Source: a virus
Lineage: Duplodnaviria > Heunggongvirae > Uroviricota > Caudoviricetes
Virus record (IMG/VR): IMGVR_UViG_2537561977_000021
Location: 1 to 17,712 of that record
DNA: 17,712 nt
Strand: one strand, 5' to 3'
Shown here: positions 1,872 through 17,712 of the stretch, piece by piece
Layout of the letters: each line of letters begins with the position of its first letter
Numbering within the stretch: position 1 is the first letter of the stretch
Program-made: the position numbers and the translations under genes
Notes under the pieces: model-generated
What the model was told of the DNA's origin: nothing
What the model saw: the letters and a program-made list of their open reading frames with translations, nothing else
Databases searched by the model: none

Positions 1872-2027
1872 TTACTCCTCAGGTTCGTAAGCTGTGAAGA
1901 CAGCGACCTCCGTCTGGCCGGTTCGGATTCGTACCTCGCAGAGGTCTTTCCTCGTTACCAGTGCCGTCACTATGACGGTTAAACAGATGACGATAAGGGC
2001 GATTAACATCGCCTTTTGCTGCTTCAT
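1872..2027 (-). CDS. hokD: Hok-family type I toxin HokD (RelF), 51 aa
   Basis: MKQQKAMLIALIVICLTVIVTALVTRKDLCEVRIRTGQTEVAVFTAYEPEE matches HokD as recalled. An in-frame upstream ATG at 2084 gives a mok-like leader ORF. The leader resembles the plasmid R1 hok mRNA leader (GGUGCUUGAGGC..., AGCCUCUUAC...CAAGGAGAAG). Confidence 0.9.
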   Translation of the reverse strand: MKQQKAMLIALIVICLTVIVTALVTRKDLCEVRIRTGQTEVAVFTAYEPEE

Positions 2028-2076
2028 AGCCTGCTTCTCCTTGCCTTTCGGCACGTAAGAGGCTAACCTACATGTG

Positions 2077-2161
2077 TTCAGCATGGATTGAGCCTCAGAT
2101 TAATGTTAAGCGTCTTGCAGGACGCGTAATGTTAACTGGGGCTTTTCTCTATCTGCCTTTT
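2077..2161 (+). ncRNA. putative Sok-like antisense RNA of the hokD locus
   Basis: Plus-strand promoter-like TTGCCT (2041-2046), 17-bp spacer, TAACCT (2064-2069). The transcript would be antisense to the mok start (2082-2084) and end near the T-run at 2158-2161. Placement is by analogy with hok/sok of R1; ends are approximate. Confidence 0.3.
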
Positions 2162-2203
2162 GGTGTTCATGCCTGAGACAGATAGCCTCAAGCACCCGCA
2201 GTC

Positions 2204-2340: not shown

Positions 2341-2643
2341 ATGAGCAGAAAAACCCAACGTTACTCTAAAGAGTTCAAAGCCGAAGCTGTCAGAACGGTT
2401 CTTGAAAATCAACTTTCGATCAGTGAAGGCGCTTCCCGATTATCCCTTCCTGAAGGCACTTTAGGACAATGGGTTACCGCCGCCAGAAAAGGGCTCGGTA
2501 CTCCTGGTTCCCGCACGGTGGCTGAACTGGAATCTGAAATTCTGCAACTGCGTAAGGCGTTAAATGAAGCTCGCCTTGAGCGAGATATATTAAAAAAAGC
2601 AACAGCGTATTTTGCACAGGAGTCGCTGAAAAATACGCGTTAA
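2341..2643 (+). CDS. IS3-family (IS600) transposase OrfA, HTH DNA-binding
   Basis: 100-aa ORF MSRKTQRYSKEFKAEAV... with a leucine-zipper-like C-terminus. Slippery site A AAA AAA G at 2592-2599 near its 3' end. Confidence 0.85.
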   Translation: MSRKTQRYSKEFKAEAVRTVLENQLSISEGASRLSLPEGTLGQWVTAARKGLGTPGSRTVAELESEILQLRKALNEARLERDILKKATAYFAQESLKNTR

Positions 2644-2678
2644 TCGAACAATGGCGACAACAATTTCCCATTGAAGCG

Positions 2679-3497
2679 ATGTGTCAGGTATTTGGTGTAT
2701 CCAGGAGCGGTTATTACAACTGGGTACAGCATGAACCCTCAGACAGAAAACAAAGTGATGAGCGGCTAAAACTGGAGATTAAGGTGGCACATATCCGCAC
2801 TCGCGAAACATATGGAACCCGGCGGCTCCAGACGGAGCTGGCAGAGAATGGCATCATCGTTGGTCGTGACCGACTGGCACGTCTTCGTAAGGAGCTAAGG
2901 CTACGCTGTAAGCAGAAACGCAAGTTCAGAGCGACTACGAACTCGAACCACAATCTGCCAGTTGCGCCAAATCTGCTGAACCAGACGTTCGCTCCTACAG
3001 CACCAAATCAGGTCTGGGTGGCGGACCTGACGTATGTTGCCACACAGGAGGGATGGTTGTACCTCGCTGGCATCAAAGATGTTTATACGTGCGAAATTGT
3101 CGGCTACGCCATGGGAGAGCGCATGACAAAAGAGCTGACAGGTAAAGCCCTGTTTATGGCGCTCAGGAGCCAGCGCCCACCTGCCGGGCTAATCCACCAC
3201 TCTGATCGAGGTTCACAGTACTGCGCATACGATTACCGGGTCATACAGGAGCAGTTTGGTCTGAAAACATCAATGTCGCGTAAAGGTAACTGTTACGACA
3301 ACGCTCCGATGGAAAGCTTCTGGGGAACGCTGAAAAATGAGAGCCTGAGCCACTATCGTTTTAATAACCGGGATGAAGCCATCTCAGTAATACGGGAATA
3401 CATTGAGATTTTCTACAATCGTCAGCGTCGTCACTCTCGTCTGGGGAATATCTCCCCGGCAGCCTTCAGGGAAAAATATCATCAGATGGCTGCTTAA
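2679..3497 (+). CDS. IS3-family (IS600) transposase OrfB, DDE catalytic domain; made as an OrfAB fusion by -1 frameshift
   Basis: 272 aa from the first ATG. The frame is open upstream to the slippery site (reads ...KYALIEQWRQQFPIEAMCQVFGVSRSGYY). DDE integrase-core motifs present (WVADLTY, HSDRGSQY, YDNAPMESFWGTLK). Confidence 0.85.
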   Translation: MCQVFGVSRSGYYNWVQHEPSDRKQSDERLKLEIKVAHIRTRETYGTRRLQTELAENGIIVGRDRLARLRKELRLRCKQKRKFRATTNSNHNLPVAPNLLNQTFAPTAPNQVWVADLTYVATQEGWLYLAGIKDVYTCEIVGYAMGERMTKELTGKALFMALRSQRPPAGLIHHSDRGSQYCAYDYRVIQEQFGLKTSMSRKGNCYDNAPMESFWGTLKNESLSHYRFNNRDEAISVIREYIEIFYNRQRRHSRLGNISPAAFREKYHQMAA

Positions 3498-3553: not shown

Positions 3554-3733
3554 TTACCGCCAGTATTCAATGCACATGACCGCCATGAACACCCCTAAAA
3601 AAAGGGCATTTATATGTCCAAACATTAATATCAAAACATCAATTTTTTCCATATACCTTGCTGTGAAGATGATGGGCATACATGATGCGAACAACCAGAA
3701 CGCAACAAACAAAAACTGCAATGCGTTTTTCAT
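3554..3733 (-). CDS. small hydrophobic protein (59 aa, about two predicted TM helices), hypothetical
   Basis: ATG at 3733 is preceded by GTAGGGGGAATA (strong SD, about 4-nt spacing). Product MKNALQFLFVAFWLFASCMPIIFTARYMEKIDVLILMFGHINALFLGVFMAVMCIEYWR. AT-rich context; stop is 14 bp from the IS600 right end. Confidence 0.35.
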   Translation of the reverse strand: MKNALQFLFVAFWLFASCMPIIFTARYMEKIDVLILMFGHINALFLGVFMAVMCIEYWR

Positions 3734-3945
3734 TATTCCCCCTACAATCAATGTGCAATAACATTTAAACACACCTCAATTTGGCCGGACATATAAATAT
3801 CTAAACCAGAAAAAATCACTTACATAGCGTTACAAACTCTTTAGTCTAAATACTCATCGTAAAACATTCCCCATACTTATCAGTCCGTTCCGCGCCAGGT
3901 AGCTTATTGCCTTATCTGGCAACCTATAATCAGGTTTCCGCTTTT

Positions 3946-8270: not shown

Positions 8271-8304
8271 CAAAGTGATTAGCAATCTTATTAGAATTGG
8301 ATGT

Positions 8305-8805
8305 ATGAAAAGAAAATCACTGTCAGACACCGACCTCAACGCCGCCAGAAGACTGAAAGAAATCTGGATGGCAAAGAAATCTCAGTTGGGATTGACTCAG
8401 GAACGTGCGGCGGAAATTATGGGGTTTTCAACACAAGGGGCGGTAAGTCACTACCTAAATGGTCAAACCCCACTAAACCTTGAGGCTGTTCTAAAGTTTG
8501 CTGGCTTACTGAAAGTTCCCCCTGAGTCAATCAGGCCAGACATGGCAGATTTGCTGCAAATTGCAAGGATGTATTGTCGAGAACCACAGCAAGATAACAT
8601 AGTCGCATTACCAGCAGACACAGAACAAACAGAGGATGAACTACCGTTTGCCGTAGAGCCGATGGAACGAGATTTAATCCATACGTTCAGAGCTTTTCCG
8701 AAAGAAGATCAAGAACACATGCTTCAGGAGATGAAAGATAAAAAAGAATCAATGGATCGTACGGTTGCGCGGTGGTTAGCTGCACAAAAAGGCCGTCGCG
8801 CCTAA
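8305..8805 (+). CDS. CI-like prophage repressor / PaaR-like HTH (XRE family) regulator
   Basis: HTH LGLTQERAAEIMGFSTQGAVSHYLNG. Divergent from the cro-like gene and followed by the paaA-parE-like pair. ATG at 8305 (MKRKSL...) lies just downstream of TAGAAT at 8292-8297, so the mRNA may be leaderless; the alternative ATG at 8275 is not excluded. Confidence 0.7.
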   Translation: MKRKSLSDTDLNAARRLKEIWMAKKSQLGLTQERAAEIMGFSTQGAVSHYLNGQTPLNLEAVLKFAGLLKVPPESIRPDMADLLQIARMYCREPQQDNIVALPADTEQTEDELPFAVEPMERDLIHTFRAFPKEDQEHMLQEMKDKKESMDRTVARWLAAQKGRRA

Positions 8806-8824: not shown

Positions 8825-9019
8825 ATGAGTACAGTCCTTTCCCCAATGGTTTCAGAATTTGAGACAGTTGAGCAAGAAAATAGTTACAACGAATGGCTGC
8901 GGGCCAAAGTAGCAGCAAGCCTCGCGGATCCCCGCCCGGCGATTCCGCATGATGAGGTAATGGCGGAAATGGAACAAATTATTGCCCAAATTGCTGCTGC
9001 AACTCACAGAGGTGAATAA
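8825..9019 (+). CDS. type II antitoxin, PaaA-like (ParE-associated antitoxin)
   Basis: 64 aa with GAGGAG 8 nt upstream. Sequence ...SPMVSEFETVEQENSYNEWLRAKVAASLADPRPAIPHDEV... resembles PaaA2-type antitoxins as recalled. Stop overlaps the toxin start (TAATG). Confidence 0.75.
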   Translation: MSTVLSPMVSEFETVEQENSYNEWLRAKVAASLADPRPAIPHDEVMAEMEQIIAQIAAATHRGE

Positions 9020-9309
9020 TGTTACCCGTTTTATGGCTACCATCTGCTCGTGATGATTTGCGCCAGATCGTAGCCTACATAGCTAAAGAAAATCCCGCGG
9101 CAGCACGCAGAATGAAAATTCGAATTGAAACATCCGTTTTGCCGCTCACAGAGCATCCTTACCTGTATCCTCCAAGCGAGCGAGTTCTTGGTCTTCGTGA
9201 AATTGTAACTCATCCTAACTACATCATCCTTTACCGAGTAACAGCATCAAGCATAGAAGTAGTAAATATTGTGCATTCTCGAAGACAGTATCCAGGCAAA
9301 AACAGTTAA
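9019..9309 (+). CDS. parE: ParE/RelE-family type II toxin
   Basis: 96 aa with hallmark RelE/ParE motifs (WLPSARDDLRQIVAYIAKENPAAARRM..., YIILYRV..IEVVNIVHSRR). Translationally coupled to the antitoxin. Confidence 0.85.
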   Translation: MLPVLWLPSARDDLRQIVAYIAKENPAAARRMKIRIETSVLPLTEHPYLYPPSERVLGLREIVTHPNYIILYRVTASSIEVVNIVHSRRQYPGKNS

Positions 9310-10799: not shown

Positions 10800-11025
10800 A
10801 TGATTTCCTTGGATCGTTGGGGATATCCAGATTATACAGATTTCTTGTCGTTGGGGAATGACAGGAACCACCTCGCCTGACGTGGTTAAAAGCAGGCACA
10901 CAACACGAAAGCGCACGGCGAAGTCATTTCTCCCTCTGTTGCGTGTCGCCGGTATCTTCGACCGTGCGCTTCCGGTTGTGGCACTCCGCGAAATGGCGCG
11001 GCGGTAAGTATGGCGGGGTTATCCT

Positions 11026-12319
11026 CTGAGGGATCCCCAGAAAATTTAGTAAACCATTATCATATTGGTATACCGTTGCTGTAGAACTTTCAGCCCTGCG
11101 TCAAGTGACAGTGTGTTTAGTATGAGTGGAGAATGTCGAATCACATTCTCCGCCAGTTTTAATAACGAGATGACTCGCCTGTGCTTCACTGTATTTGCCT
11201 GATATTTATGATGTATCCCTTTGTTTTCCAGGCTGAAACCGCTTAACCACATAATGATACTGGCTAATGTTGCGATCAGACTCAATACCGTGACCCGCCC
11301 GGATGAATGACTGGCACCAAACCGTAGTCCAAATCCCCAGCGAGGATTTTTTTCATCCCTGAAATTTTGCTCAATTTGCATTCTACGGCTGTATAATTTC
11401 ATTACCTGTTTTGGCGAGAACTCAGTACTGTTTGTGAAAATAAACCATGGTGATTTCCCGGCAGTACGAGCTTTAGCCGTCACCGATGGTCTGGTTGCTC
11501 TTTCCTTCGAGCGTTTAAATCTACGACCTTTAGGCTTACTTTTATAAAGATAAAAATGCCCTTCATGTTGTGCATTTTTATCTCGACCCAGCAGGCCTTC
11601 ACCTAAATAAATTGCTGTCGTTGATGCTTTTGTGCCTGAGTCCGACACCTTTTCCCAGCCATTACCAACATTGTAATAATGATTGCCCAGTACCCGGCAA
11701 ATATAGGTCCAGCCACGGGAGCGGAGCTGTTGGAACCATCGCCCCTGAAAACCGGCATCTGTAATAACAATGACATCAGTCCCGGGGGAAAAGCACTCAG
11801 CAAGCGATTCCAGAAAACGCTCATGTACATCTGCATTCGCTGTCTGTGATGATGGAACGACACAACTCATCAACGGTAAAGAACGCCCGTCACATGCCAG
11901 GCTTGCCCGCAAAAGCTGAAAACGAGAGGCATGATAAGCACTCTAGTCAATGAGTATCACAACACGAGACATTCCCCGCGTAATCTTTTGGGTAATTCGC
12001 TGAAAAATGGTGGAAACCTCATTTTGCAAATGTCGATTCCCCAACAGTCGATCCACCCGCTTTATTTTGTTTTTAACTGATGCCGTACCGGTTAAATGAC
12101 GCCCGATACTGGTAAGTGTGAGGGAAGCGCCATTTATTACAGCATTAGTTGCGTCAATCAGTGATTTTTGACGGTAAAGATGCAAAGGGGCCAGTATGTT
12201 GTTAAGGAAATTTTGGCATAATGAACGTGCAGGCATAGTGGTGATCTCCTTGAAATTGTTAGCACAATCAATTAGATCACATCTCACTATGCCTGTCTTG
12301 TTTTCTGGGGATTCCTCAG
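11026..12319 (-). mobile_element. IS10-like insertion sequence (IS4 family), about 1294 bp, transposase inactivated
   Basis: Terminal inverted repeats CTGAGGGATCCCCAGAAAA (left) and TTTTCTGGGGATTCCTCAG (right). Flanking direct repeat GGGTTATCCT (11016-11025 and 12320-12329), consistent with a 9-bp target duplication; boundaries uncertain by 1 bp. Confidence 0.8.
11046..12236 (-). pseudogene. IS10-like transposase interrupted by an in-frame amber (TAG) codon
   Basis: The ORFs 11943-12347 and 11046-11912 are in the same frame, separated by TAG at 11945-11943. N-terminal motif KNKIKRVDRLLGNRHL and the C-terminal part align with IS10 transposase as recalled; the TAG sits where IS10 has Trp (TGG). 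Likely start is ATG at 12236 (MPARSL...). Confidence 0.75.
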
Positions 12320-12407
12320 GGGTTATCCTTACCCCCACAGGTAGCACCGGGTTGTCAGGTTGACCATACGCCCGAGTGACAACCCCGCCACAACATCTCC
12401 ATGTTGA

Positions 12408-12466
12408 GGCTTGTGTGAGACCTTTGGCGGCATCAGTTTAATTGCTGGCTGATGTCCGCCCTTTTT
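12408..12466 (+). ncRNA. dicF: DicF-like small RNA with intrinsic terminator
   Basis: ...TTGTGTGAGACCTTTGGCGGCATCAGTTTAATTGCTGGCTGATGTCCGCCCTTTTT resembles E. coli DicF (recalled as UUUCUGGUGACGUUUGGCGGUAUCAGUUUUACUCCGUGACUGCUCUGCCGCCC). Hairpin GGCGGCATCAG/CTGATGTCCGCC plus T5. dicB and ydfD follow downstream as in Qin. 5' end approximate; 5' region diverges. Confidence 0.55.
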
Positions 12467-12467
12467 A

Positions 12468-12637
12468 AAGTGAATTTTGTGATGCGGTGAATGCGGCTAA
12501 GCGCACGCGGAACAGTTAAAAAAGTGATAGGCACTCCGTATTTGTTTTATGGAGTTGGTTTCCCTGTATTCCGGCGTTAATTGTTAACTGGTTAACGTCA
12601 CCTGGAGGCACCAGGCACCGCATCACAAAATTCACTT
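12468..12637. repeat. pair of 22-bp inverted repeats (AAGTGAATTTTGTGATGCGGTG) flanking about 126 bp
   Basis: Plus 12468-12489 matches the reverse complement of 12616-12637 (21-22 of 22 positions). Internal palindromes CCTGG-AGGCA-CCAGG and CATCACA...TGTGATG. Lies immediately downstream of the DicF-like terminator. Confidence 0.6.
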
Positions 12638-12766
12638 CTGTGATGAAAGGTGAGAGAAAATGTTGAATGTAGCTATTGAAAACCAGAACGGGTGGAATTA
12701 TAGTGCACCTGCACCTCATAAAACGGGTGCCGGGATTGGCCTCCTGTTAATCACATTGGTGCCTGA

Positions 12767-12791
12767 ACACGCACCAAAAGCGTGTTTTTTG
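12767..12791 (+). terminator. Rho-independent terminator (ACACGC-ACCAAAA-GCGTGT + T6)
   Basis: Hairpin plus TTTTTT read directly. It lies inside the long ORF-track frame 12660-13508, arguing that Rha starts downstream. Confidence 0.55.
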
Positions 12792-12950
12792 TTGCCTGCA
12801 TTTCATCATTCAATGGCAGCTCAGGCGGGAGCTTCTCACGAAGCGCCGGGTTCCGATGTGACCGGTAAGGCCAATCCCGTCTGGGCTACCACCAATCGGA
12901 TTGGCCTCTGCGGTGGTGGCAGTACTGCTTTCACATCGGAGGATGCCGTT

Positions 12951-13508
12951 ATGGCTACTATCACTACCCTTTCTCACCCTTGTGTAACCATCGAAAATGG
13001 TCGCGCTGTCACCACATCTGTCGCCATTGCGGAATTCTTCCGCAAAATGCATAAAGACGTTCTGAAAAAAATAGACAACCTAGAATGCTCTGAGAAATTT
13101 AGCGGGCGCAATTTTGCGCCCGCCGAATATCTTGATGAGCAAGGCAAAAAACGCCCAATGTACCAGATCACCAAAAACGGCTTCGTTTTCCTGGTGATGG
13201 GATTCACTGGCAAAAAAGCCGCTGCATTTAAAGAAGCCTACATTGCTGAGTTCGATCGCATGGAGGCCGAACTGCGCCAGAATAACACCCCACCCACTGA
13301 CAAAATAATTCCAGGCGATGGCCGCACCCTGGTTGTTCACTTCGACGAACGCGGCAACATCAGATTCACCGAAACCGTTCCTGATGGCGCACGGGTCTGT
13401 ACCATGGAGACTTTCCGGTTTTATCTGGAAGAACAGGGATGGACTCTTGTTAACCGAGGCGCAATTAAAAATATGACTGTAGAGCAATTACTCAAAATTC
13501 ATTGTTGA
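12951..13508 (+). CDS. Rha-family phage regulatory protein (Phage_pRha domain)
   Basis: ATG at 12951 with GGAGGA 7 nt upstream. Motifs VTTSVAIAEFFRKMHKDVLKKIDNL...YQITKNGFVFLVMGFTGKKAAAFKEAYIAEFDRMEAEL match the Rha family as recalled. The ORF-track start at 12660 is rejected in favour of this one. Confidence 0.7.
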   Translation: MATITTLSHPCVTIENGRAVTTSVAIAEFFRKMHKDVLKKIDNLECSEKFSGRNFAPAEYLDEQGKKRPMYQITKNGFVFLVMGFTGKKAAAFKEAYIAEFDRMEAELRQNNTPPTDKIIPGDGRTLVVHFDERGNIRFTETVPDGARVCTMETFRFYLEEQGWTLVNRGAIKNMTVEQLLKIHC

Positions 13509-13518
13509 GGACGCGATA

Positions 13519-13707
13519 ATGGAAACGTTATTACCAAACGTTAATACGTCTGAAGGTTGTTTTGAAATTGGTGTCACTATCAGTAACACGGTATTTACTG
13601 AAGATGCCATTAACAAGAGAAAACACGAACGGGAGTCATTAAATAAAATATGCATTGTTTCAATGCTGGCTCGTTTGCGTCTGATGCAAAAAGGATGCTG
13701 GCGATGA
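13519..13707 (+). CDS. dicB: cell-division inhibitor DicB (62 aa)
   Basis: METLLPNVNTSEGCFEIGVTISNTVFTEDAINKRKHERESLNKICIVSMLARLRLMQKGCWR is near-identical to E. coli DicB as recalled. GAGGA 8 nt upstream. Lies downstream of the DicF-like RNA as in Qin. Confidence 0.8.
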   Translation: METLLPNVNTSEGCFEIGVTISNTVFTEDAINKRKHERESLNKICIVSMLARLRLMQKGCWR

Positions 13708-14125: not shown

Positions 14126-16426
14126 ATGGATGACAACGATTATGATGAAGACGACTTTAAAAAACCCGTCCGCGTCAATTTGCCCGTTGTTGACGACCTT
14201 CCGCCAGAAGGCGTGTTTGATACTGAATTCTGCAACCGCTATGAAAAAGGCGGGAAAGATGGCATCACAATGACATTTATCGGCCCTTCCCCCTCTGTTC
14301 AGGACAAACCAGCCAGCACTGACAATACCAACATCAACGGCGAAGACATGACTGAGATTGAGGAGAGCATGCTTCTGCCTGTCTCCGGTCAGGAACTGCC
14401 CATTCGTTGGCTTGCTCAACACGGCAGCGAAAAACCAGTAACGCACGTTTCACGCGACGAACTCCAGGCATTACACATTGCACGGGCTGAAGAACTACCG
14501 GCTGTTACTGCCCTGGCTATTTCGCATAAAACCAGTCTGCTCGACTCGCTGGAGATTCGCGACCTCCACAAACTGGTTCGTGACACTGACAAAGTTTTCC
14601 CTAATCCTGGTAATTCAGACCTGGGACTAATAACTGCTTTTTTCGAAGCATACCTAGACGCTGACTACACTGATCGGGGTCTGCTGACAAAAGAGTGGAT
14701 GAAAGGAAATCGTGTTTCACGCATCACCCGCACGGCTTCCGGTGCTAATGCTGGTGGTGGGAACAAAACCGATCGCAATCCGAATTTAGTACACACCCTC
14801 GACACACTGGATGTGGAGATTGCAGCAGCCACACTTCCGATGGATTTTAATATTTATGAAATTCCGGGCAGCGTTTATCGTCGCGCAAAAGAAGTAGTCC
14901 TGAAAAAAGAAAGTCCGTTCAAAGAATGGTCCGCAGCACTTCGTGCAACCCCGGGTATTCTGGACTATTCCCGCGCCGCTATTTTTGCACTTATCCGAAG
15001 CGCACACCCTGAATTTTATCACTACCCGGGACGCCTTCAGGGGTATATCAACGCCTATTTGACGGAAACTGATCACGAGAACCCCAGCAAGGAAACTCTC
15101 ACAGCTGCCCGGCATACGCCGGAAAAAGATATCCTGGAAGAAATTAACCGCGAGGTGGTTACTGAGCGTGAAACAGAAGAAGAAAAACCACAACCATCTG
15201 ACGCAATGGCAGGTGAACAGGCAACAACTGAAACAATGGAACCGGATACAACTGAACATTGCCAGAACGCGCAGTCGCTGGATGCTCAGTCGCAGGTGAG
15301 TTCCGCTAACCAAGTAAAAGTCACCGCTGACGAAGTAAACAAAATTATGCAGGCAGCCAATATCAGCCAGCCTGACGCCGATAAGTTACTTGCTGTATCG
15401 CGTGGTGAATTTGTTGAGGGGATTAGCGACCCTAATGATCCGAAATGGGTCAAGGGGATCCAGACTCGCGATTCTGTGAACCAGAACCAGCATGAATCGG
15501 AACGGAACGACCAAAAAGCGGAACAAAACAGCCCAAATGCGTTACAAAACGAGCCAGAAACGAAACAATCCGAACCAGTAGCGCAACAGGAACCGGAAAA
15601 AGTCTGCACCGCCTGCGGTCAGAGCGGTGGCGGCAACTGCCCTGATTGTGGCGCGGTGATGGGCGACGCAACATACCAGGAAACATTCGATGAAGAGAAT
15701 CAGGTTGAAGTTCAGGAAAATGATCCGGAAGAAATGGAAGGCGCTGAACATCCACACAAGGAGAACCCTGGCGGCAATCAGCATCACGCCAGCGATAATA
15801 AAACTGGCGAGGCGACAGATCCCTTAATTAAGGTGAATGGTCATCATAAGCTCACATCCACCAGCAGAGCGGGGATTCATCTGATGATCGACCTTGAAAC
15901 CATGGGAAAAAATCCCGATGCCCCGATTATCTCAATAGGCGCAATATTTTTCGATCCACAAACCGGAGATATGGGACCGGAATTTAGCAAGACCATCGAT
16001 CTGGATACTGCTGGCGGAGTCATTGATCGTGACGTCATTAAATGGTGGCTGAAGCAATCACGTGAAGCGCAGTCTGCCATTATGACCGATGAAATCCCGT
16101 TAGATGATGCACTACTGCAATTGCGGGAATTTATCGACGAAAACTCCGGTGAATTTTTTGTTCAGGTCTGGGGTAATGGGGCCAACTTCGACAACGTGAT
16201 TTTACGCCGTTCATACGAACGACAGGGTATCCCCTGCCCGTGGCGCTACTGCAACGATCGCGATGTACGCACAATCGTTGAGCTGGGGAAAGCCATAGAC
16301 TTCGATGCCAGAACTGCTATCCCATTCGAAGGTGAGCGCCATAATGCACTTGATGACGCTCGTTACCAGGCAAAATACGTTTCAGCTATCTGGCAAAAAC
16401 TGATCCCGAGTCAGGCTGATTTTTAA
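14126..16426 (+). CDS. large prophage exonuclease: acidic N-terminal region, central Cys-rich zinc-ribbon-like motif, C-terminal DEDDh (DnaQ-like) 3'-5' exonuclease domain
   Basis: 766-aa ORF. C-terminal motifs IDLETMG (Exo I), WGNGANFD (Exo II), HNALDDARYQAKY (Exo III, DEDDh); CTACGQSGGGNCPDCG in the middle. The true N-terminus may lie in the overlapping -1 frame ORF 13986-14273, which has GAGG 10 nt upstream. Confidence 0.75.
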   Translation: MDDNDYDEDDFKKPVRVNLPVVDDLPPEGVFDTEFCNRYEKGGKDGITMTFIGPSPSVQDKPASTDNTNINGEDMTEIEESMLLPVSGQELPIRWLAQHGSEKPVTHVSRDELQALHIARAEELPAVTALAISHKTSLLDSLEIRDLHKLVRDTDKVFPNPGNSDLGLITAFFEAYLDADYTDRGLLTKEWMKGNRVSRITRTASGANAGGGNKTDRNPNLVHTLDTLDVEIAAATLPMDFNIYEIPGSVYRRAKEVVLKKESPFKEWSAALRATPGILDYSRAAIFALIRSAHPEFYHYPGRLQGYINAYLTETDHENPSKETLTAARHTPEKDILEEINREVVTERETEEEKPQPSDAMAGEQATTETMEPDTTEHCQNAQSLDAQSQVSSANQVKVTADEVNKIMQAANISQPDADKLLAVSRGEFVEGISDPNDPKWVKGIQTRDSVNQNQHESERNDQKAEQNSPNALQNEPETKQSEPVAQQEPEKVCTACGQSGGGNCPDCGAVMGDATYQETFDEENQVEVQENDPEEMEGAEHPHKENPGGNQHHASDNKTGEATDPLIKVNGHHKLTSTSRAGIHLMIDLETMGKNPDAPIISIGAIFFDPQTGDMGPEFSKTIDLDTAGGVIDRDVIKWWLKQSREAQSAIMTDEIPLDDALLQLREFIDENSGEFFVQVWGNGANFDNVILRRSYERQGIPCPWRYCNDRDVRTIVELGKAIDFDARTAIPFEGERHNALDDARYQAKYVSAIWQKLIPSQADF

Positions 16427-16484: not shown

Positions 16485-16688
16485 ATGAGCAGCTTATTTT
16501 TAACCGAAGATGAATTGCTAATATTAACGGGCTGCAAATATGCAAGCCACCAGCGAAAATGGTTAATGGAAAACGGGCTTCCGTTCTATACCAATCGTAG
16601 TGGCAAACCGATTGTCAGCCGGGATCTATTTACCTGCAATAAAACTTTACCACCACGCGAGGTAGAGCCGAATTTTGGTGCGATCTGA
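16485..16688 (+). CDS. excisionase-like protein (DUF4224-like) upstream of integrase
   Basis: 67 aa starting MSSLFLTEDELLILTGCKYASHQRKWLMENGLPFYTNRSGKPIV..., typical of DUF4224 excisionase-like proteins as recalled. Stop overlaps the int start (TGATG). Confidence 0.65.
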   Translation: MSSLFLTEDELLILTGCKYASHQRKWLMENGLPFYTNRSGKPIVSRDLFTCNKTLPPREVEPNFGAI

Positions 16689-17712
16689 TGGGAAGACGAA
16701 GGAAAAATCCTGAACACGAAAAATTACCTCCAAATGTATACCCAAATAAATATAGTTATGTATGGAAACCAACATCCAGAGAATCTGTCACACTAACCGC
16801 CATCAAGGATGGTTTAGCTGCTTTATGGAAAAAGTATGAGGAAACTGTAAATAATCGCGATCGTGCAATGACATTCGGTCGCTTGTGGGAAAAATTCCTC
16901 GCCAGCGCCTATTACAGTGACCTTAGTCCAAGAACACAAAAAGATTATCTGCAACATCAAAAAAAGTTGCTTGCCGTATTCGGTAAGGTACCAGCGGATT
17001 CCATAAAACCAGAACACATCCGTCGATACATGGACAAAAGAGGGGAGCAGAGTAAAACGCAAGCCAACCATGAAAAAAGCAGTATGTCCCGTGTTTACAG
17101 TTGGGGGTATGAGCGAGGGTACGTGAAGGCTAACCCATGTGCAGGTGTAAGTAAATTCAAGGCCAAAAACCGCGAACGATATGTAACCGACAAAGAATAC
17201 CAGGCAGTATTAAGCGTTGCACCTCTTCCTGTTTTTATCGCAATGGAAATTGCCTATCTGTGTGCAGCGAGGGTTTCCGATGTGTTATCGCTGAAATGGG
17301 AACAGATTGGAAACGACGGGATATTCATCCAGCAAGGGAAAACCGGAAAAAACAGATAAAAGCATGGAGTCCACGATTACAGGCAGCGATCGAAAAAGCA
17401 AAACAGTTACCAAAATCTGCCTATGTGATCAGCAATCAATACGGCAACCGATATATGTACAAAGGCTTTAACGAAATGTGGGTAGATGCAAGAAATCGTG
17501 CTGGAAAAATTTCAGGTATTTTAACCGACTTCACCTTTCATGATCTGAAGGCGAAAGGAATTTCAGACTATGAAGGAAGCAGCCGGGATAAGCAACTTTT
17601 CTCTGGTCACAAAACCGAAGGGCAAGTGCTAATCTATGACAGGAAGGTTAAAGTTTCACCAACACTTGATGTCCCGTTACCTGAAAATATTCCAAGAAAA
17701 TATTCCAAGTAA
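16688..17712 (+). pseudogene. lambda-family tyrosine integrase, disrupted by a frameshift in an A6 tract
   Basis: The N-terminal ORF 16688-17359 (MGRRRKNPEHEKLPPNVY...GKTGKNR*) and C-terminal ORF 17260-17712 (...FHDLKAKG...GHKTEGQVLIYDRK, catalytic His/Tyr region) lie in adjacent frames that switch at AAAAAA 17347-17352. An A7 would give the continuous ...GKTGKKQIKAWSP.... Confidence 0.8.

Follow-up and report, generated by a model that had tools for sequence, protein, structure and literature searches.

In phage T7 early mRNA and the lambda N leader, RNase III cuts polycistronic transcripts at long intercistronic hairpins, and the cuts set the ends of the resulting RNAs. In Escherichia coli K-12, RNase III processing has been described in the dicF-dicB region of the Qin prophage. 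According to Faubladier, Cam and Bouche (1990), as reported in two papers that cite it, a 53-nt form of DicF ends at a terminator, and processing of the full-length transcript by RNase III gives a 72-nt form, which extends 19 nt beyond the terminated one. Table S1 of Gordon (2017; mBio) lists position 1649470 (NC_000913.3) as a 'dicF-dicB' intergenic site with 0 and 0 reads in the wild type and 26 in the delta-rnc strain. This signal sits in a long list of low-count sites, and the authors equate the site with the 'known' DicF site, with the 5' and 3' sites undistinguished. A 2023 study in J Bacteriol discusses only an RNase III cut upstream of DicF, which gives a 190-nt species. A second system of relevance is STnc100, an abundant prophage RNA of Salmonella and E. 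coli that has no established function and for which a relationship to PasD of EPEC was recently reported.

The window considered here is a stretch of 17,712 nucleotides of DNA from a virus record (Caudoviricetes), analysed over its whole length. A first-pass annotation of the sequence had pointed out a perfect 22-bp inverted repeat around 126 bp, directly after a DicF-like terminator. It had proposed that the long duplex formed in read-through RNA could be a substrate of RNase III, with a pair of protein-binding sites or a MITE-like remnant as alternatives. By sequence alignment, the repeat corresponds to the spacer between dicF and dicB in the Qin prophage of K-12. Because the RNase III reading has been known for K-12 since 1990, the feature had already been described. 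The annotation missed this known biology. It also overlooked a conserved multi-hairpin RNA domain, of whose closing helix the arms form the outer part. We consider it likely that the repeat is helix P1 of a structured RNA of ca. 170 nt, the RNase III processing site of the dicBF operon in another prophage.

Prophage context of the repeat

Pfam and Rfam scans identified the window as part of a Rac/Qin-like lambdoid prophage with its early-left operon on the + strand. Since the genes run in the order repressor-like gene, DicF, dicB, recE-like exonuclease, integrase, the + strand is the sense strand. The features around the repeat are as follows; genes and RNAs come from the Pfam and Rfam scans.

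8275–8805, + strand: HTH repressor-like gene
9019–9309, + strand: ParE toxin gene
12412–12466, + strand: DicF-like small RNA with intrinsic terminator and T-run (Rfam RF00039)
12468–12489, + strand: left arm, AAGTGAATTTTGTGATGCGGTG, 5' strand of the closing helix P1; RNase III cut predicted at ca. 12480 from K-12 homology
12616–12637, + strand: right arm, CACCGCATCACAAAATTCACTT, 3' strand of P1; its outer end is a mosaic junction beyond which downstream modules diverge
12660–13508, + strand: ORF of the Rha-family gene
12676–12704, + strand: promoter-like site (TTGAAA, 17 nt, TATAGT)
12711–12790, + strand: isrK
12809–12896, + strand: C4 antisense RNA
13492–13503, + strand: outer right-arm sequence in a second copy, CAAAATTCATTG; the dicB leader and start codon come next
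13519–13707, + strand: dicB
14126–16426, + strand: RecE-like exonuclease
16688–17359, + strand: integrase gene fragment

Elsewhere in the window, a sok antitoxin RNA at 2022–2197 (- strand, 118.9 bits) indicates a hok/sok locus, and an IS3-family transposase ORF with rve domains (2341–3497) adjoins it.

The DicF-like terminator is where the first-pass annotation had placed it, directly before the repeat. The Rfam DicF model (RF00039) matches 12412–12461 with 45.4 bits (E 7e-9), below its gathering threshold of 48. A terminator-like stem at 12429–12456 is followed by a T-run (CGCCCTTTTT) that extends to 12466, and the left arm starts 2 nt past it. The 5' (seed) part of this RNA diverges from that of K-12 DicF (UGUGUGAGACCUUUGG in the window, UUCUGGUGACGUUUGG in K-12), and the targets of the two RNAs may differ. 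The 5' part resembles that of DicF-like RNAs in another prophage class.

With the IS element removed, so that 10973–11021 joins 12323–12385, another hairpin-rich domain can be seen upstream of DicF. It is closed by GUUGUGGC/GCCACAAC, and its last hairpin (CACCGGG...CCCCG) abuts its stem. The counterpart in K-12 is at 2252–2367 of the Qin locus (L001), and the RNase III-dependent DicF species of 190 nt would begin, in K-12, within a few nt of the 5' strand of this upstream stem. The upstream domain was suspected to be a second copy of the repeat domain, with the RNase III cut behind the 190-nt DicF at its closing stem – model R1 detects no such copy there in the window or in K-12, and the resemblance is visual only.

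The IS element is a copy of ISEc60 (IS4-like) at ca. 11022–12322 on the - strand. It is 99.4–99.5% identical to other E. coli copies and has terminal inverted repeats, with GGTTATCC on each side. The insertion interrupts the early-left operon 89 nt upstream of the DicF-like RNA, and therefore read-through from the early promoter may no longer reach the repeat; ISEc60 may thus cut the element off and silence the operon in this window.

On the other side of the repeat, dicB does not follow directly. The isrK-C4-rha cassette lies between the two, and dicB is displaced by ca. 880 nt. The cassette (12638–13503) appears to have been inserted as a discrete unit into the right arm, in its outer half: CAAAATTCA is found at 12626–12634 and again at 13492–13500, where it runs into the normal dicB leader (GTTGAGGACGCGATAATG). 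This second copy of the outer right-arm sequence is the far end of the inserted cassette, and the same junction occurs in loci L002 and L003; E. coli E423 and CFSAN061761 share this far junction. The sequences 3' of the right arm are of at least four unrelated types, which identifies the right arm as a mosaic junction.

The 282-codon ORF at 12660–13508 is called 'Rha family' by PGAP in relatives, and Pfam places Phage_ASH on its residues 14–105. The Phage_ASH stretch coincides with the isrK and C4 RNAs of Rfam and with the promoter-like site at 12676–12704; the Ash 'protein family' may in part be a translation of conserved RNA genes. The Rha domain begins at residue 118, and an ATG with a good Shine-Dalgarno sequence, at 12951, is probably the true start of the gene.

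Geometry and conservation of the repeat

A repeat search of the window found two arms of 22 nt each, 100% complementary and spaced by 126 nt. The 22-mer occurs in exactly two places in the 17.7-kb window, even when three mismatches are allowed, and such a repeat was found in none of 200 dinucleotide-preserving shuffles of the window; the search and the shuffles thus bear out the perfect 22-bp repeat around 126 bp that was first described. The annotation had also noted that TGTGATG recurs three times locally. This is literally correct, but the arms themselves account for two of the copies and the third, at 12639–12645, is without extra weight; it reads GGTGATG in nearly all relatives that share the junction. 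Folding of 12460–12650, which had been suggested as a check, gave -74.9 kcal/mol (z = -6.4), in keeping with a structured RNA. A perfect helix of 22 bp is rare, being present in 2 of 130 homologous copies. The usual copy has 21 bp with 0–3 G:U pairs, or one bulged A.

Alignment with the spacer between dicF and dicB in the Qin prophage of K-12, a comparison that the annotation had proposed, shows a homologous element there. When the 186-nt element was used as a blastn query against 5426 complete E. coli genomes with a coverage cut-off of at least 80%, that much of it was found in 4403 genomes, usually with dicB annotated at its end. The median number of copies per genome is two and the maximum is nine. 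Pattern scans of GTDB genomes and IMG/VR gave the 130 usable copies referred to here. With the whole window as query, no single E. coli genome was found to contain it in full; the best one covers 79%.

Terminal inverted repeats of 22 bp around a short non-coding segment, and several copies per genome, could suggest a MITE remnant that landed between dicF and dicB. The search for further copies, proposed at first as a test for such an element, did find several per E. coli genome, but the window copy has no target-site duplication: its flanks (CCGCCCTTTTTA and CTGTGATGAAAG) contain no direct repeat, as the first-pass annotation had also seen. In all 48 distinct long-stem copies that follow a DicF terminator, the distance from it to the first base is the same. 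The copies inspected are in early operons of prophages or P1-like phages, those of the latter in equivalent operon positions, and are not dispersed; this statement is confined to the inspected copies, with ca. 10,860 places in E. coli genomes. Arm length ranges from 8 to 22 bp around one core, and the arms evolve by compensatory and G:U changes, which indicates selection at the level of RNA. A MITE origin is very improbable.

The selection on RNA can be seen in the alignment of 71 distinct homologues, in which 91.7% of pair cells are paired, compared with 34–41% when the partners are slid by 1–3 columns. Changes on both sides were found in 23 of 40 pairs, and the observed values were reached in none of 500 shuffles. 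In one viral contig (L060), the arms (AACAGACCTTGCAATGCAGTG / CACTGCATTGCAAGGTCTGTT) are unrelated in sequence and form a perfect 21-bp helix around the same core. The P1 cells of the 48 distinct DicF-linked copies consist of 950 Watson-Crick, 76 G:U and 5 A:C. The G:U variants are common alleles – GCGG or GTGG with CCGC or CTGC, in all four combinations – and A:C is rare. Since G:U pairs form only in + strand RNA, the covariation and the excess of G:U over A:C show that the helix is selected as + strand RNA. Model R1 also distinguishes the strands: the element scores 128 bits on +, compared with 9 bits on -. The arms form an RNA helix conserved on the + strand.

These results bear equally on the idea that the arms act as DNA, either as paired inverted protein-binding sites (looping operators) or as the repeats of an invertible switch. 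Identical inverted 22-mers 126 bp apart are in accord with such an element, and an integrase fragment is present at 16688–17359. The protein-binding sites put forward in the annotation fail on the L060 arms, which are unrelated in sequence with complementarity in full, and a DNA site would not have G:U pairs on the + strand far above A:C. A switch is opposed by the orientation of the inner segment, which is the same relative to the flanks in 130 of 130 copies, and no dedicated invertase adjoins the element. We consider a DNA-level element extremely improbable.

The enclosed domain and its relatives

The consensus structure of the segment between the arms has four hairpins, which together with P1 make up a five-helix domain:

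12490–12615, + strand: inner four-hairpin domain (RNAalifold consensus)
12492–12495/12502–12505, + strand: P2, UGCG/CGCA
12508–12511/12570–12573, + strand: base of P3, CGGN/NCCG, covarying A-U, G-C, C-G; the distal part varies in length
12574–12580/12592–12598, + strand: P4, with conserved loop UUGUUAACUGG
12601–12605/12611–12615, + strand: P5, CCUGG-AGGCA-CCAGG, directly abutting P1

In 32 diverse copies, 96.3% of the cells of the inner domain are paired and 13 pairs have changed on both sides, and the loops and junctions are conserved far more than the flanks. Around this one conserved core, the closing helix is anywhere from 8 to 22 bp long. The long helix in the window is an extension of a stem that is short in other copies, with the outer 12–13 bp of P1 added specifically in the DicF-linked class. 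In another prophage class, the domain is found just upstream of a DicF-like RNA. With regard to a tRNA-like reading, ARAGORN found no tRNA in the window.

Some reading frames pass through the domain. A small ORF inside it (window, MELVSLYSGVNC; K-12, MGGFSVSGVNC) keeps the frame in some variants but is missing or out of frame in others, and no Shine-Dalgarno sequence was seen for it when the sequences were read by eye. In K-12, an open frame in phase with dicB runs through the RNA domain. In L002 (2725–2799) and L003 (2715–2798), RefSeq has a 'partial DicB' pseudogene within the domain that covers P3–P5 and the right arm; this is probably an annotation artefact of the open frame.

At gathering thresholds, Rfam gave no match within 12468–12637. 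A scan by E-value found STnc100 (RF02076) at 12473–12629 with 34.9 bits (E 4.4e-6), compared to a gathering threshold of 47. The alignment covers model positions 21–154 of 206 and keeps the closing helix and the P4-like and P5 hairpins, and the independent RNAalifold consensus agrees with it. Relatives of the element score 34–43 bits against STnc100. By model score, the element is a divergent relative of STnc100 and not a certified member.

The same domain is found in the ban operon of phages P1, P7 and D6, upstream of tciA/terB and 30–40 nt before the start codon, where it scores 101–127 bits with model R1. Its closing stem in these phages is only 8–9 bp (UUGCGGUG/CACCGCAA), and a 28-nt stretch of the window element is identical in phage P1. 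Phage D6 (L006) has two weaker copies of the domain, at 3678–3794 (48.7 bits) and 883–984 (26.3 bits), both on the strand of the tciA-like gene cluster. The K-12 dicF-dicB spacer, the tciA leader of the P1 family and STnc100 appear to be one modular RNA domain with a closing helix of variable length. The added value is modest and lies in linking three elements that mostly receive separate annotations or none.

The short-stemmed copies raise the question of whether the helix mainly closes a cis-acting leader or intercistronic domain that controls the stability, translation or termination of what lies downstream, with RNase III secondary. Copies with stems of 8–10 bp, too short for RNase III, are found 17–40 nt upstream of the start codons of unrelated genes; these include tciA/terB in P1, P7 and D6 and other ORFs in viral contigs. 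The extra copies in D6, the conservation of loop and junction sequences beyond the flanks, and the relationship to STnc100 (E 4e-6) point the same way. However, STnc100 and PasD are themselves without known function, and the outer 12–13 bp are specific to the DicF-linked class, the one with a reported RNase III-dependent end. Simple sequestration is also not expected, as the helix includes neither the start codon nor the Shine-Dalgarno sequence. A leader domain as the main role of the helix is unlikely.

Probable RNase III processing and comparison with known systems

Processing by RNase III remains our preferred role for P1. The element is 3' of the DicF terminator on the sense strand, it is homologous to the K-12 site, and its duplex of about two turns is conserved as RNA. 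The K-12 dicF gene is annotated at 2383–2435 of L001, and a further 19 nt leads to ca. 2454, within the left arm at 2443–2463; the reported 3' end of the 72-nt DicF therefore places an RNase III cut in the middle of the left arm. The equivalent position in the window is ca. 12480, mid-left-arm. The delta-rnc site at 1649470 is 8 nt past the left arm of K-12. RNase III dependence and the approximate position of the cut come from literature on the K-12 homologue, for the 1990 study as given by the papers that cite it, and would apply to the window by analogy. Together with the covariation and the G:U bias, the published K-12 homologue supports the original suggestion that the long duplex in read-through RNA would be a substrate of RNase III.

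Transcription of the element, on the + strand, would require RNA polymerase to read through the DicF-like terminator. In the read-through RNA, P1 would form and RNase III would cut both of its strands. By analogy with K-12, the cut in the left arm near 12480 would produce a DicF ca. 19 nt longer than the terminated form; a staggered cut in the right arm is predicted near 12623–12627. The cuts would part the small RNA from the message that follows it, giving the latter a new 5' end ca. 35 nt before the ATG at 12660, and would excise a five-helix domain of ca. 145 nt with 9 bp of its closing stem left. The 0 wild-type reads of Gordon (2017) hint that the excised RNA is degraded. The downstream genes may be affected as well, in stability or translation.

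If RNase III processing were the main role, two observations would be left unexplained: the conservation of the inner domain, such as the 28 nt identical in phage P1, and the family members with closing stems of 8–10 bp. A more speculative reading, which we put forward tentatively and with some doubt, is that the repeat is an RNase III 'release handle' on a modular five-helix domain of the STnc100/PasD type with a sequence-specific function of its own. In that case, the freed RNA of ca. 145 nt with its 9-bp stem would have the form of the short-stemmed copies that precede tciA in P1, P7 and D6 and DicF-like RNAs in other prophages. Lambdoid and P1-like phages would also exchange downstream 'moron' genes at a junction marked by the domain. 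Should the inner domain have its own function, the locus would be a tractable one, since its promoter and the nuclease are known and division phenotypes are easy. For annotation, the likely role in RNase III processing would explain the repeat as the helix through which a single prophage transcript can give rise to the division-inhibiting DicF as well as the downstream messages.

The K-12 dicF-dicB site has the same place after the DicF terminator, the same long closing helix and the same inner hairpins as the window element, and its score with model R1 is nearly the same (128.7 bits, compared with 128.0 in the window). The differences are in detail and in surroundings. The K-12 helix has 21 pairs including G:U wobbles, whereas that of the window has 22 perfect Watson-Crick pairs, and P3 is 14 nt longer in the window. 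In the window, the isrK-C4-rha cassette follows instead of dicB, an IS element interrupts the operon upstream, and the 5' part of the DicF-like RNA is divergent.

STnc100 shares with the element a multi-branch domain, a closing helix ..UGGUG / CACCA.. with AAU after the 5' strand, and a terminal hairpin (CACCGGGAGGCACCCGG) that abuts the 3' strand; both are intergenic in prophages, on the sense strand of long operons. The element differs in its sub-threshold score, in the sequence of P2, and in a closing helix extended from 8 to 22 bp. The tciA leader of P1, P7 and D6 belongs to an early operon in which a 'dicF-like region' is present too, but it is not preceded by a DicF terminator, and in phage P1 itself P3 and P4 are replaced. 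The RNase III sites of T7 and lambda N are simple hairpins with internal loops and have no sequence relationship to the element, which is instead a long-range helix around a conserved multi-hairpin domain of 126 nt.
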